DNA from: Vulcanimicrobiaceae bacterium
Lineage (GTDB): Bacteria > Vulcanimicrobiota > Vulcanimicrobiia > Vulcanimicrobiales > Vulcanimicrobiaceae
Assembly: GCA_036489885.1 (NCBI GenBank)
Contig: DASXEW010000002.1
Location: 32,111 to 96,110 of the forward strand
DNA length: 64,000 bases
Direction: 5' to 3'
Made by a program: the position numbers and the translations under genes. This document shows, in pieces, positions 30,139-38,007 of the stretch; position 1 is the stretch's first letter; every line of letters begins with the position of its first letter. The notes under the pieces were generated by a model. That model was not told the origin of the DNA. It did not search any database and worked only from the letters and a program-made list of their open reading frames with translations.

Positions 30139-30495
30139 TTATCCCGGGGGCCAGGTCAAATGCCGTCCCGCCAGGACGTGCAGATGCAGGTGGCTCACGG
30201 TTTGACCGCCGTCGGGTCCCTCGTTGATGACGACGCGATAGCCCTGTCCATCGCGCTGAAAGCGTCCGCCAACCTCGGCTGCAGCCGCCAAGAGCTTGGC
30301 CTTGAGATCGGGCAAGGCTTTGGCGTTGAACTCCGAGAGGTGATCGGCGTGCAGTGTTGGGACCACCAAGATGTGCGTCGGGGCTTGCGGATTTAAATCG
30401 TGAAATGCGACGACGTCCGCGTCGCGCAGCACTTCCCGCGCGGGTATGTCCCGGCGGATGATTTTACAAAAAATGCAATCCTCGGGGTCGCTCAC
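30139..30495 (-). CDS. HIT-family (histidine triad) nucleotide hydrolase/transferase
   Basis: HLHLHVL triad. The GTG start overlaps the stop of the upstream substrate-binding-protein gene. Confidence 0.9.
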   Translation of the reverse strand: MSDPEDCIFCKIIRRDIPAREVLRDADVVAFHDLNPQAPTHILVVPTLHADHLSEFNAKALPDLKAKLLAAAAEVGGRFQRDGQGYRVVINEGPDGGQTVSHLHLHVLAGRHLTWPPG

Positions 30496-32066
30496 GTCTT
30501 CGGTTTCATCAGCTGATACCAGATGACGTTGTTCGGATTCGGAACGACGCCCGTGATGTTCGATTTCATCGCGAACGGCACGGTCGTGTGGACGAGGGGA
30601 ATCGCCGGCGCCTCATCATGCACGAGCTGCAAAGCCTGCGCGTAGATCTTGGCGCGTTCGCTGTCGACGATCGTCGTTTGCCCCTCGAGCATCAGCTTAT
30701 GGAAGTTTTCGTCGCGCCAGAACGAGTAATTCTGGCCGCCCTTCACGGCTGAATCCTTATCGAGCAGCGGATAGAGGAAATTGTCCGGATCGCCATTGTC
30801 GCCGGTCCACCCGATCAAGCACATCGGATGCTCGCCGTTTTTGATCTTGCTGAGATACACTGCCCACTCGAACGGCTCGAGCGTCACGTTGACGCCGATC
30901 TGCCGTAAGTCGGCTTGAATCGCCTCGGCCACGCGTTGCGGCTCGGGCATGTACGGACGTGGCGCAGTTCCGTAATAGAGCTCCGTGCTAAAGCCCTTGC
31001 TCATTCCGGCAGCAGCCATCAGTGCTTTCGCCTTAGCGATGTCGTGCGGATAGGCTTTAACGGCGGGATTCCCTCCGAGCATCCCCGGAGGATTCCATTC
31101 GTTCGCGACCACGCCGCCGACCGGATAGAATGCGTGCACGATCGCGGGGATGTCGATCGCATATGCAATCGCTTGACGAATGCGCCGATCGGCAAATGGT
31201 TTCTTGTCCATGTTCATCGCCAGATACGAAACGTTGTTCGAGGGCTGGCGATAGATGGTGATGTTCTTGAACTTGGCAAGATTCGTCGCGTCGTCGGGCC
31301 GCAGATCCGAAAGGCCGTCGATGTCACCCTTCTGCAGTTCGAGCACGCTCGTTGCCTGATCCGGAATGTCGCGAATCACGACGGTCGTATATGCCGGCGC
31401 CGGACGGTAGCCCGGATTCGCGCGCAGCGTAATGTGGTCGTCTTTTACCCACTCGCCGAGCTCGTAGGGTCCGCTCCCGACGGGATGATGATCGAACGCG
31501 ACGATGTCCGCCTTAATCGCGGTCGGCGAACCGATTGCGAACGACGGCATCGCAAGATTCCGCAAGAAGGGACCGTACGGACGCGTCAACTTGAACGTGA
31601 CCTTTTGCGCGCCGTCCACCTGCACGTCGGATATTAGGCCCGGAAATCCGCCGAACTCCGCGACGTAGTACGAAAACTGATAGTTGCCGCGATACTGATT
31701 CGTCGTCAGTCGCCAGCGGTCGAAATTGAACTTGACTGCCTCGGCGTCGAGCGGCGTGCCGTCCGTGAACTTCAGGTTCGGTCGCAACAAGAACGTCCAC
31801 GTCTTGCCGTCTTTGCTGGTCGTCCACTTTTCCGCGATATCCGGAACGACGTCGAACGAGCCGGGACGAAAAGCGACGAGACCCTCCAAGATGAGGTTCG
31901 TCACGTTGAGAGAGAGCCCATCGGTCGCAACGGCCGGATCGAGATCGACCGCATCCTTTACCCGGGCAAAGATCATTGCCGGGGGCCCTGCCGCTCTCAC
32001 CGGACGAGTCAGCGTAACCGAAGTCAAGATCAGAACGGCGCCAAGCGCGCAAAGCAATCGTTTCAT
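30492..32066 (-). CDS. family-5 solute-binding protein (OppA/DppA-like), orphan
   Basis: Signal peptide and SBP_bac_5-like sequence, 524 aa. No cognate permease or ATPase gene is adjacent. Confidence 0.8.
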   Translation of the reverse strand: MKRLLCALGAVLILTSVTLTRPVRAAGPPAMIFARVKDAVDLDPAVATDGLSLNVTNLILEGLVAFRPGSFDVVPDIAEKWTTSKDGKTWTFLLRPNLKFTDGTPLDAEAVKFNFDRWRLTTNQYRGNYQFSYYVAEFGGFPGLISDVQVDGAQKVTFKLTRPYGPFLRNLAMPSFAIGSPTAIKADIVAFDHHPVGSGPYELGEWVKDDHITLRANPGYRPAPAYTTVVIRDIPDQATSVLELQKGDIDGLSDLRPDDATNLAKFKNITIYRQPSNNVSYLAMNMDKKPFADRRIRQAIAYAIDIPAIVHAFYPVGGVVANEWNPPGMLGGNPAVKAYPHDIAKAKALMAAAGMSKGFSTELYYGTAPRPYMPEPQRVAEAIQADLRQIGVNVTLEPFEWAVYLSKIKNGEHPMCLIGWTGDNGDPDNFLYPLLDKDSAVKGGQNYSFWRDENFHKLMLEGQTTIVDSERAKIYAQALQLVHDEAPAIPLVHTTVPFAMKSNITGVVPNPNNVIWYQLMKPKT

Positions 32067-35591: not shown

Positions 35592-36352
35592 TCCTTGCGA
35601 CGTAGCGCCTTCCATCGAACGATGGTCTGATACGACGCCGACCAGAACGCGATATACAGGCCGCGCCGGCCGAGGCGGAGGCCACCGCGCGGTCCAAGCA
35701 ACCAGACGAAGCGCGCGGGTGCGACGAGTGCGCTGACGACGAGACGGGCGATGCTCGGAGCAGTGCCCGCGGCTTCGATCGACGTGTAGCGCTCGTATTT
35801 CTGCGCGTAGGTGCTTTCCTCGGGATACGAGTTGTGAAAGAGCGCGCCGTCGAGATCGGCGACGTTCCCCGGAACGCTCCAGCGCTCGTGCAGCGCGGCG
35901 CTGCCGCCTGCGACGGGATGCGCCGCGACGACGCCGCGATCGGTTCGGAACATCCGTAAGATCATCTCGTTGTCCCACCCGAAGGCATGCACGATCTCGC
36001 CGCAAAAACGCGTCGCGCGCCGCACGCGATATCCCTCGATCTCCGCGGCTTCGGGTTCAATGTTGAAAAGCGCCTCGCGCAGCTTGTCGTCGAGCTGTTC
36101 GTCGGCATCGAGCATGAACGTCCAAGGCGAGCGTACGTTATCGACTGCGAACGTGCGTGCATCGACGAAGTTCGTCCATTGCCGTTCGAGTACGGTCGCA
36201 CCGGCGCGCCGTGCAACCGCGACGGTGTCGTCGCTCGAACAGGCATCGAGCACGAGGACATTCGCACCCGGAGGCAGTGATGCCAGGGCGTCGGGCAACG
36301 ATTCGCTCGCATCGAGCGTAAGGATGACGAACGTGATCCGACCGAGGTTCAG
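35588..36352 (-). CDS. glycosyltransferase family 2 (proposed CTG start overlapping the pyrG stop)
   Basis: DACSSDDT and MLDADE (DxD) motifs. The conserved first beta-strand [12 protein letters not shown] is encoded upstream of the first canonical start (TTG at 36298). Only the CTG at 36352 (CTGA overlap) is available. Confidence 0.7.
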
Positions 36353-38007
36353 GAGCGGGTCAGTTGTGCGCTGGGTGTCGCTGCCTGCTCGCGACTGCTT
36401 GCCAGGGCCGCACCGACGAAATCACGATACAGCGGCGACGGACGCGTCGGGCGTGACTTGAACTCCGGATGTGCCTGCGTTCCTACAAACCACGGATGAA
36501 TGCTTTGCGGCAGCTCGATGACTTCGACCAGCGTCGTGCGGCCCAAAACATGATGTCCCGAAAAGATCATGCGATGTTCTTCGAAAATCGCTTTGTATTT
36601 ATTGTTGAACTCGTAGCGGTGGCGATGACGCTCGCTGATCTCAAGCGAACCATACGCGCGCGCCGCCAGCGAACCAGCCTCCAAGATGCAGTCGTACGCG
36701 CCGAGGCGCATCGTCCCGCCCTTGAAATCCAGATTGCGCTGTTCGGGCAAGAAGTCGATGACGTTGTTGGTCGTCGCCTCATCGACTTCGGTCGTCATCG
36801 CATCTTCGAGACCGCAGACGTTACGCGCGAACTCGACACACGCCAACTGCATTCCGTAGCAGATGCCCAGGAACGGCACCTTGCTTTCGCGTGCGTGTTG
36901 GATTGCGCGCAACTTTCCTTTGACGCCTCGAGCTCCGAAGCCGGGAGCGACCAAAATGCCTTCGGCTCCATCGAGCACGCCCACGCCCTGCTCTTCGATC
37001 GTCTCGGAATCCACGCGCACGATCTCGATCGATGCATCGTGATAGATGCCGGCGTGGTACAGCGCCTCATTGATTGAGATGTAGGCGTCTTTGAGCTCGA
37101 CGTACTTACCGACGAGTGCAATCCGCAGGCGGTGTGCCGGCCGATCGATGCGCTCGACCATCGCCGCCCATTCCTCGAGCCGCGCGGGATGCTGCACGCG
37201 AAGCGCAAGCTTTTGAATCACGGCTTCGGCGAGGCCCTGGGCTTCGAGGTTGAGCGGCACCTTATAGATGCTCGAGGCATCGGCATTGCCTACGACGGCA
37301 TGCGCGGGAACGCCGCAGAACAGCGCGATCTTCTCTTTCAAGTCTTCGGTGATGCGCCGGTTTGAGCCGGTCCGGACCACGATCGCGTCGGGCGAGATGC
37401 CGATGCCGCGAAGCTCGCGCACGGAGTGCTGTGTCGGCTTAGTTTTGAGCTCGTCGGCCGCACCCAGGTGCGGGACCAGCGTGAGATGGACGTACATAAC
37501 GTTCTCGTCGCCGACGTCGTGACGAATTTGACGGATCGCTTCGAGAAACGGCAGGGATTCGATGTCGCCGACCGTCCCGCCGACCTCGATGATGTAGACG
37601 TCGGCGACTTGCATCTCGGCGACGCGCGTGATTGTCGCTTTGATCTCATTCGTAATGTGCGGTACGACCTGAACCGTCGCACCCAAATAGTCGCCGCGCC
37701 GTTCCTTCTCGATAACCGACGCGTAGATCTGGCCCGTCGTCACATTGTTACGGCGCGTCAGATTCTCGTCGATGAAGCGTTCGTAGTGTCCGAGATCGAG
37801 ATCCGTCTCGGCGCCGTCTTCCGTAACGAAAACCTCGCCGTGCTGGTACGGATTCATCGTACCCGCGTCGACGTTGATGTATGGATCCAGCTTCTGGATC
37901 GAGACGGTCAGTCCGCGCGCCACGAGTAGGCGCCCGAGTGAAGCTGCCGTTATCCCCTTTCCGAGCGAACTTACAACGCCGCCGGTAAAGAAGATGTATT
38001 TCGCCAT
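36349..38007 (-). CDS. pyrG: CTP synthase
   Basis: 552 aa. [18 protein letters not shown], and the glutaminase domain motif GICYGMQ. Confidence 0.97.

Follow-up and report, generated by a model that had tools for sequence, protein, structure and literature searches.

A class-wide pyrG-glycosyltransferase-exported protein gene array with a probable near-cognate start codon at a stop/start overlap in Candidatus Eremiobacterota

Seven genes on the minus strand are joined by six 4-nt overlaps

We analysed a 64,000-nucleotide (nt) stretch of DNA, hereafter the window, from a Vulcanimicrobiaceae bacterium (assembly GCA_036489885.1, contig DASXEW010000002.1, positions 32,111 to 96,110 of the forward strand), which contains a run of seven co-directional genes. 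These genes encode cytidine triphosphate (CTP) synthase (PyrG), three glycosyltransferases (one of family 2, GT2, and two of family 4, GT4a and GT4b), an exported protein with a stalk domain and immunoglobulin (Ig)-like domains (here referred to as the stalk protein), a solute-binding protein (SBP5), and a HIT protein (Table 1). A preliminary description of this locus had claimed that the seven genes are chained by 4-nt overlaps, and this is confirmed: all seven open reading frames (ORFs) are located on the minus strand at the coordinates first assigned to them, and the six junctions, read from the sequence, are CTGA, ATGA, ATGA, GTGA, ATGA, and GTGA, each of which is a 4-nt start/stop overlap. 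Every domain identity given in that description is likewise backed by Pfam or NCBIfam. As detailed below, the gene order is kept across the class, and the GT2 gene probably starts at the near-cognate CTG codon that overlaps the pyrG stop codon.

Table 1. Features of the pyrG-HIT cluster, with window coordinates
Feature	Coordinates	Strand	Evidence
pyrG, CTP synthase, 552 amino acids (aa), heads the chain	36349-38007	-	NF003792 810 bits and TIGR00337 773 bits, both above cut-off; Pfam CTP_synth_N and GATase
CTGA junction, GT2 CTG start on pyrG stop TGA	36349-36352	-	Sequence reading
GT2, single-domain GT-A glycosyltransferase, 254 aa counted from CTG	35588-36352	-	Pfam Glycos_transf_2 3e-8
GT4a, GT-B glycosyltransferase, 327 aa, ATGA overlap with GT2	34608-35591	-	Pfam Glycos_transf_1 8e-17, Glyco_transf_4 5e-13
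GT4b, paralogue of GT4a, 332 aa, ATGA overlap	33613-34611	-	Pfam; reciprocal tblastn
Exported stalk/Ig protein, 517 aa, GTGA overlap with GT4b	32063-33616	-	Pfam Cu_amine_oxidN1 and Big_13
SBP5, SBP_bac_5 (DppA-like) periplasmic solute-binding protein, 524 aa, ATGA overlap	30492-32066	-	Pfam 1e-99
HIT (HinT-like) nucleotide-binding protein/hydrolase, 118 aa, GTGA overlap, last gene of the chain	30139-30495	-	Pfam HIT 1.5e-24
Promoter-like TTGACC-17-TATAGT, overlaps the 3' end of HIT, ahead of rpsU	30131-30159	-	Consensus scan

All sampled loci from three families of the class share one core gene order

The host belongs to Candidatus Eremiobacterota (Vulcanimicrobiota), and the homologues carry the names Candidatus Eremiobacteraeota, Vulcanimicrobiaceae, Baltobacteraceae, Ca. 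Elarobacter, and Ca. Cybelea and include WPS_16220 of Vulcanimicrobium alpinum. We compared two sets of relatives, which are non-independent samples. In sample 1, the seven proteins were placed by tblastn at 39 loci from three families of the class; sample 2 consisted of 80 further named species representatives. Judging gene order as far as each contig reaches, we found no exception to the order pyrG-GT2-GT4-stalk protein-HIT among the 39 loci of sample 1 or the 80 species of sample 2; the linkage, whose conservation the preliminary description had named as a test, is thus conserved. A strong GT2 match was present in all 41 of the 41 genomes sampled from the class (three families). The full conserved order is pyrG-GT2-GT4(-GT4)-stalk protein-(SBP5)-HIT and is invariant at 35-50% protein identity. 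In the cultured V. alpinum (AP025523.1, cluster at 1,584,152-1,592,058), it is embedded in the array prfA-ADH-prmC-pyrG-GT2-GT4-GT4-stalk-SBP5-HIT-rpsU-(TonB receptor)-yqeY-nfeD-floA. GT4 is present in one to three copies, with two or three in approximately 30 of the 80 species loci as well as in this genus, genome G008, and V. alpinum. Also variable between genomes are kilobase-sized inserts between HIT and yqeY and the upstream neighbour of pyrG. One locus (L047, genome G035) has two tandem SBP5 copies 3' of the stalk protein gene and a gap of ~680 nt between GT2 and GT4. At two others (L022 and L024, from the near-complete metagenome-assembled genomes G005 and G003), tblastn placed several cluster genes in frame-shifted pieces, which are probably assembly indel errors and not pseudogenes.

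As a baseline for the overlaps, we used a crude codon-usage gene caller on the window's genome and counted same-strand junctions. Canonical 4-nt overlaps were present at 467 of 2052 such junctions (23%), or at 28% with near-cognate starts included. A caller-independent walk along NTGA junctions gave ~954 links and six chains of six junctions, none longer; the chain from pyrG to HIT is one of these six. Thus, its length ties the genome maximum yet matches the habit of the genome, and it is no statistical outlier. Retention of the individual overlaps differs between junctions (Table 2). The GT2|GT4 and GT4|stalk overlaps were retained at 74-83%, compared with the genome baseline of 23-28%, and within sample 2, retention was 74-92% inside the GT2-GT4-stalk trio compared with 34-61% at the edges. 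The GT2-GT4-stalk trio is, therefore, the most tightly and most stably packed part of the cluster.

Table 2. Retention of 4-nt overlaps at the junctions of the cluster
Junction	Sample 1	Sample 2
pyrG|GT2	20/38	44/76
GT2|GT4	31/39	62/77
GT4|GT4	5/8	24/26
GT4|stalk	30/36	51/69
stalk|SBP5	16/24	10/29
SBP5|HIT	16/23	17/28
stalk|HIT	3/10	16/35

These numbers bear on the explanation that the genes share no function at all and that genome compaction inside a housekeeping array (prfA-prmC...pyrG...rpsU-yqeY-nfeD-floA-phoH-ybeY) produced the overlaps, the order being kept by inertia. The existence of six chains of six junctions in one genome, the overlaps kept around the optional SBP5, and the housekeeping neighbours on both sides are what this explanation predicts. 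It fits poorly with an order that is invariant in three families, while SBP5, the number of GT4 genes, the inserts between HIT and yqeY, and the upstream neighbour all change, and with the higher overlap retention within the trio than at its edges. We consider inertia as the sole cause to be quite unlikely.

The GT2 gene probably starts at a near-cognate codon on the pyrG stop

The GT2 frame contains no ATG, GTG, or TTG from the upstream in-frame stop codon down to the TTG at 36298. This TTG, the first canonical start, would cut off residues 1-18. Residues 6-12 (ITFVILT) form β-strand 1 of the GT-A fold in an AlphaFold2 (AF2) model (predicted local distance difference test score [pLDDT] of 94.4), and the Pfam, NCBIfam, and PDB alignments to GT2 all begin at residues 6-17. 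In 40 aligned loci, the homologous start codon is CTG (16 loci), ATT (7 loci), ACG (1 locus), or one of ATG, GTG, and TTG (16 loci). The near-cognate codons concentrate in the family of the window (23 of 24 loci, counting the one ACG); in the other two families, GT2 mostly starts at a canonical codon after a spacer of 4-55 nt, and the near-cognate codon aligns exactly with the ATG, GTG, or TTG of relatives that have the spacer. In sample 2, 67 of 80 species had CTG at this position; the codon shares bases with the pyrG TGA in 44 species and sits 13 nt before the stop codon in 22. The V. alpinum pyrG|GT2 junction is the same CTGA. The GT2 CTG has no Shine-Dalgarno (SD)-like motif in front of it. 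Termination-reinitiation at 4-nt overlaps is documented in bacteria (PMC6728339; PMC10666635). Based on the position and conservation of the codon, we infer that GT2 is translated by ribosomes that terminate on pyrG and reinitiate.

Two other ways of producing GT2 were considered, namely, a PyrG-GT2 fusion made by a programmed frameshift near the pyrG stop codon and initiation farther downstream, at an ATC at +15 or at TTG 36298. In their favour, the open GT2 frame extends 69 nt beyond the CTG on its upstream side in the window, and much further in some relatives. However, the junction lacks a slippery heptamer, GT2 lies in the -1 frame, which is unfit for a prfB-type +1 shift, and in some relatives the frame opens a mere 15-30 nt ahead of the start. 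Moreover, relatives with a canonical start begin at the aligned codon, some of them with an in-frame stop codon or the pyrG stop just upstream, and initiation at TTG 36298 would remove strand 1. Both alternatives are highly improbable, and the frameshift fusion was rejected on the basis of the junction sequence together with the relatives.

Public annotations of GT2 in the lineage use internal GTG or TTG starts and give proteins of 236-239 aa, compared with ~254 aa counted from the near-cognate codon; for this genus, the annotated length is 236 aa. In V. alpinum, the annotated GT2 (locus L076 5259-6005, AP025523.1) starts at an internal GTG and lacks strand 1. This looks like a systematic N-terminal mis-annotation across the lineage.

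CTGA was also observed at other junctions of the cluster, i.e. at GT2|GT4 in L030, L034, L042, and L056, at stalk|SBP5 in L044 and L045, and in 16 of the 51 GT4|stalk overlaps of sample 2 (L079-L158). It may be that the lineage accepts near-cognate starts for reinitiation more generally, or that the true starts are located elsewhere.

A shorter homologue of the exported protein follows pyrG in genomes without a GT2 orthologue

The stalk protein consists of a signal peptide (residues 1-26), a Cu_amine_oxidN1 domain (residues 42-147; 3e-16), two small barrels (residues ~158-310) that are LSDLHVGD repeats, a Pro/Ala/Thr linker, and two Ig-like domains (residues 329-517). Its AF2 model had a pLDDT of 82, and 34 aligned orthologues had a mean column identity of 63%. 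Because it has no Cys and no lipobox, the protein is probably soluble in the periplasm. Its gene has a GGAGG 12 nt ahead of the GTG start; a further in-frame ATG is present upstream at 33682, and the homologues and the signal peptide favour the GTG at 33616. Foldseek searches with the model returned generic Ig arrays alone (contactin, titin, SiiE) and no functional lead, the sequence had no match among solved structures, and the middle barrels gave sub-threshold DUF5666/CusF-like hints alone. A literature search on the stalk domain together with glycosyltransferases found nothing relevant.

Full-length orthologues were present in 230 of 231 genomes of the class; the other classes of the phylum gave weak domain-level matches. 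In 5 of 17 genomes from these other classes, a homologue of 360-380 aa without the stalk domain directly follows pyrG. It matches residues ~270-517 of the stalk protein, in two cases the Ig-like end alone. The pyrG|homologue junction is a GTGA overlap in two of these loci and has spacers of 1 and 10 nt in two others. No GT2, GT4, SBP5, or HIT gene was found near these out-of-class pyrG genes, and the five genomes had no GT2 orthologue at E <= 1e-8, though all five have LpxC. In a separate word-based homology search, the out-of-class Ig-like protein had 12 close relatives.

Because the homologue directly follows pyrG outside the class without the glycosyltransferases, the tie between pyrG and a secreted Ig-like protein predates the glycosyltransferases. 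The preliminary description had called the coupling to pyrG unusual; this coupling did not come from the glycosyltransferases, as pairs of pyrG and the homologue exist without them. The distribution of the genes suggests that GT2, together with GT4, and the stalk domain arose together in the class. The presence of lipopolysaccharide (LPS) as a correlate of GT2 is ruled out by the five LpxC-positive genomes that lack GT2.

GT2 resembles both LPS and protein glycosyltransferases

GT2 matches PF00535 with 34 bits (cut-off 23.3) and has a GT-A fold with a DxD motif, of which the form D82-A-D84-E85 (DAD-E, residues 82-85) is invariant among the homologues. By sequence (phmmer against the PDB), the nearest solved relatives are GmaR (4e-8) and SunS (4e-3). 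By fold (Foldseek), SunS/ThuS are at the top (6e-13 to 1e-11), four orders of magnitude ahead of the rest. The identity to SunS/ThuS/GmaR is 17-18%. The Foldseek target proteins are 333-421 aa or longer, and the extra C-terminal substrate-recognition/tetratricopeptide repeat (TPR) domain of SunS/ThuS/GmaR is absent from GT2, which ends at residue 254 after three helices, the C-terminal one being basic and amphipathic in the AF2 model. The WaaE/LgtF LPS enzymes are similar to GT2 in length, single-domain build, and C-terminal helices. These relationships place GT2 in a WaaE/LgtF-SunS-GmaR subgroup as a probable inverting GT-A enzyme. GT4a and GT4b have both domains above the Pfam cut-off and an intact E-x7-E motif (EGFGLPLLEA and EGFGLPVLEA, respectively) and are ~40% identical by reciprocal tblastn. 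The NCBIfam matches of GT4a are generic and all far below the cut-off. The two proteins are best described as putative generic retaining GT-B enzymes.

One reading of these relationships is that GT2 and GT4 are LPS-core or glycolipid enzymes that modify a lipid-linked acceptor at the inner membrane, with the stalk protein, SBP5, and HIT as unrelated neighbours. Eremiobacterota are diderms with LPS (PMC9758169; bioRxiv 10.1101/534180). Consistent with this reading, relatives show LPS by electron microscopy, and the window's genome encodes LpxC, an Omp85 protein, and GT9 genes. Several GT2 homologues carry the Joint Genome Institute (JGI) label "(heptosyl)LPS beta-1,4-glucosyltransferase", the length and single-domain build of GT2 resemble those of WaaE/LgtF, and the modelled basic C-terminal helix suggests that the protein may associate with the membrane. 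On the other hand, the GT2 gene is located between pyrG and GT4, outside the LpxB/GT9 cluster and thus not in a core cluster of the WaaE/LgtF kind. A separate LPS-core-like cluster exists elsewhere in the genome, KdtA was not found in this genome, nor was a clear KdsB (weak partial CTP_transf_3 matches alone), this GT2 is missing from the five LpxC-positive genomes outside the class, and GT2 is never parted from the stalk protein gene in ~120 loci. We therefore regard a role confined to LPS or glycolipid synthesis as rather unlikely. The absence of KdtA and of a clear KdsB hints at an LPS without 3-deoxy-D-manno-octulosonate (Kdo), as in cyanobacteria; by the same token, CMP-Kdo synthesis as the logic of the pyrG link was rejected. 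Besides an LpxB-like gene, the LPS-core-like cluster (C4:606-616 kb), which adjoins aspS, has three GT2 genes and two genes of the GT9 heptosyltransferase-like kind; one further ORF in it, of 326 aa, has no Pfam match.

A second reading, the main one of the preliminary description, is dedicated protein glycosylation, in which GT2 would put the first sugar on Ser/Thr residues of the unfolded stalk preprotein, GT4 would extend it, and the product would be exported by Sec. The invariant GT2-GT4-stalk adjacency and the retained GT4|stalk overlap point in this direction, as do the nearest solved relatives of GT2, i.e. GmaR and SunS/ThuS, which are protein or peptide glycosyltransferases. Likewise, no GT2 orthologue is found where the homologous protein lacks the stalk domain, despite the presence of LpxC, and a cytoplasmic route needs soluble glycosyltransferases alone, which fits the content of the cluster. 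Nevertheless, GT2 lacks the recognition domains of SunS/ThuS/GmaR, and a 254-aa single domain with a basic amphipathic end helix suits a membrane-bound lipid acceptor equally well. The candidate substrate is made of compact beta domains with no Cys and no Ser/Thr-rich repeats. We consider dedicated glycosylation of the stalk protein to be possible, if somewhat unlikely.

SBP5 is optional and HIT borders on rpsU

The preliminary description had regarded SBP5 as an orphan that was specially recruited, possibly as a structural or binding component. SBP5 matches Pfam SBP_bac_5 with 335 bits and NCBIfam NF043070 (DppA) with 315 bits, below the cut-off of 1005, and no transporter genes of an Opp/Dpp ATP-binding cassette (ABC) importer are adjacent. 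However, the window's genome has 16 SBP_bac_5 genes compared with one OppD/F ATPase pair (C3:550393-551675), and none of the 16 adjoins the pair; apparently, many SBP5 proteins share one transporter core. In the cluster, SBP5 is present in 24 of 34 loci of sample 1 and in ~32 of 69 loci of sample 2 and absent from 10 of 34 and 37 of 69, respectively. With 16 equally orphan paralogues and an optional place in the cluster, SBP5 is not a special recruit, and a recruited structural component is ruled out by the paralogues, the single transporter core, and the variable presence.

HIT has an HLHLHVL motif that conforms to His-x-His-x-His-x-x and matches Pfam HIT with 87 bits and NCBIfam NF007965 with 84 bits (below the cut-off of 206). 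At all loci that extend far enough, it comes after SBP5 or the stalk protein, and its place is immediately ahead of rpsU. HIT has no specific tie to a glycosylation system: it adjoins rpsU-yqeY, and genes on the same strand continue past it.

The 3' limit of the cluster is arbitrary

A consensus scan found no promoter-like site within pyrG-HIT, and terminator-like sites were at the level of shuffled sequence; TTGACC-17-TATAGT (Table 1) was the sole promoter-like consensus match in 29000-39000. Downstream of HIT, an 82-nt gap is followed on the same strand by rpsU, yqeY, nfeD, floA, phoH, and ybeY. Consequently, the 3' limit of the "unit" is arbitrary. The rpsU gene (29886-30056, 56 aa, MEVRV...) is absent from the default ORF list, and its stop codon overlaps the TTG start of yqeY. 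At the other end, a divergent MetE-like gene begins 44 nt upstream of pyrG, and the pyrG ATG has no SD-like motif in front of it. Most of this gap is filled by a GC-rich hairpin, CGCGGGGAAGCGGCCTCGCG (window 38025-38044, plus strand). The hairpin, which lies in the pyrG leader, has no Rfam match, and a search with Rfam (E-value mode) over 29000-39500 detected no regulatory RNA in or ahead of the cluster.

A putative envelope glycoconjugate module with a coupled GT2 start

The explanation that in our view best accounts for these observations is a conserved class-level array with a coupled GT2 start that forms an envelope glycoconjugate module, and we hold it with evenly balanced confidence. According to this explanation, ribosomes would finish pyrG and reinitiate at the near-cognate GT2 start (CTG; ATT in some genera), such that GT2 would be made at a low, fixed ratio to pyrG translation, probably with sensitivity to initiation factor 3 (IF3). 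The ATGA and GTGA overlaps would then hand ribosomes to GT4 and from there to the stalk protein gene, for which a separate GGAGG is present as well. As cytoplasmic Leloir enzymes, GT2 and GT4 would together assemble a short glycan on some component of the envelope of this diderm, which bears LPS, and the stalk protein would belong to the same module, either as an acceptor glycosylated before Sec export or as a periplasmic partner of the glycan. The link between pyrG and the exported protein is the ancestral one, to which the glycosyltransferases and the stalk domain were added in the class. For the parts of this explanation, our confidence differs. We lean slightly towards the GT2/GT4/stalk trio being one functional module. 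This leaning is divided almost evenly between glycosylation of the stalk protein, which is slightly favoured, and a glycan that the stalk protein binds or handles, each of which is rather unlikely taken by itself. Most of the remaining weight lies with LPS or glycolipid enzymes beside unrelated neighbours and with synteny alone. A more elaborate version, a lineage-specific glycoprotein system in which a SunS/GmaR-like GT2 and one to three GT4 enzymes would modify the stalk preprotein in the cytoplasm ahead of Sec export, metered by reinitiation from pyrG, with the CUG/AUU start acting as a valve tying output to the pyrimidine supply, is speculative and improbable; such a valve on envelope glycoprotein output would be sensitive to IF3 or growth rate.

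Several observations weigh against a coupled glycoconjugate module. First, there is no genome-wide excess of CTGA (61 junctions, about chance), and CTG initiation at GT2 thus rests on homology and not on a general trend. Second, overlaps also persist beside presumably unrelated genes (SBP5|HIT in 16/23 and 17/28 loci). Because they are common around the optional SBP5, retention is partly lineage habit and partly inheritance and no proof of shared function. Third, the joint gain of the glycosyltransferases and the stalk domain is a single evolutionary event. Fourth, neither Ser/Thr-rich repeats nor any other recognisable site of glycosylation is present in the stalk protein. Fifth, neither the seven genes nor their neighbours include a gene for a carrier-lipid/initiating phosphoglycosyltransferase, a flippase/ABC exporter, or an oligosaccharyltransferase; the wider genome was not searched for these. 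Finally, to our knowledge, no WaaE/LgtF structure has been deposited, and SunS/ThuS may be the nearest solved relatives of GT2 for that reason.

The cluster is of interest for several reasons. Eremiobacterota abound in soils and peat; a single member has been cultured, and very little is known about their envelope. A block kept in every class member examined marks something that the lineage has not lost, and V. alpinum WPS_16220 with the three upstream glycosyltransferase genes offers a concrete target. The CTG/ATT of GT2 is a clean natural near-cognate start kept at a stop/start overlap across dozens of species and is useful for studies of reinitiation. Lastly, the tie of pyrG to a secreted Ig-like protein before the glycosyltransferases may point to a link between CTP/phospholipid supply and envelope growth.

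Comparison with known systems

With regard to translation, the cluster resembles the coupled gene pairs of Huber et al. 2019/2023 (PMC6728339, PMC10666635), which are described as frequent, co-directional start/stop overlaps with downstream genes that lack their own SD sequence. Unlike the systems covered there, the first junction here has a near-cognate CTG/ATT start that is conserved across most of a family, and six junctions join a nucleotide-biosynthesis enzyme to envelope genes and not the subunits of one complex.

For GT2, the likeness to WaaE/KdtX/LgtF lies in a single GT-A domain of ~250 aa, a DxD motif, helices at the C-terminal end, and a diderm host that bears LPS. Unlike those enzymes, this GT2 is encoded outside an LPS core cluster in a genome in which no KdtA or KdsB was found, and it is missing from LpxC-positive sister classes. 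SunS/ThuS (PDB 7msp, 7msn, 7msk) and GmaR (PDB 22ao) are its fold and sequence neighbours; these enzymes work in the cytoplasm and glycosylate a polypeptide whose gene is close to their own, which is similar to the placement of GT2. However, the extra C-terminal domains are theirs alone, and the candidate substrate here is a 517-aa Sec-exported protein without Cys.

The arrangement of a glycosyltransferase gene directly upstream of an exported-protein gene, with no flippase or oligosaccharyltransferase, is shared with HMW1C/HMW1, Aah/AIDA-I, and TibC/TibA. Those systems use GT41 enzymes or heptosyltransferases (GT9-like) on autotransporter or two-partner substrates, whereas the present cluster has GT2 and GT4 enzymes with a periplasmic Ig-like array as the candidate substrate.

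In Proteobacteria, linkages of the pyrG-kdsA-eno type place CTP synthase at the head of an operon with an envelope-biosynthesis gene. Unlike in that case, the logic of CMP-Kdo is inapplicable here, with no KdtA or KdsB found, and the gene ancestrally paired with pyrG encodes a secreted Ig-like protein. Also, GT2 and GT4 enzymes generally use UDP-, GDP-, or ADP-sugars and not CMP- or CDP-sugars. Overall, the cluster is best described as an ordinary coupled operon in a conserved, lineage-specific form, set apart by its as yet unexplained ancestral link to pyrG and by an unusual, conserved near-cognate start.

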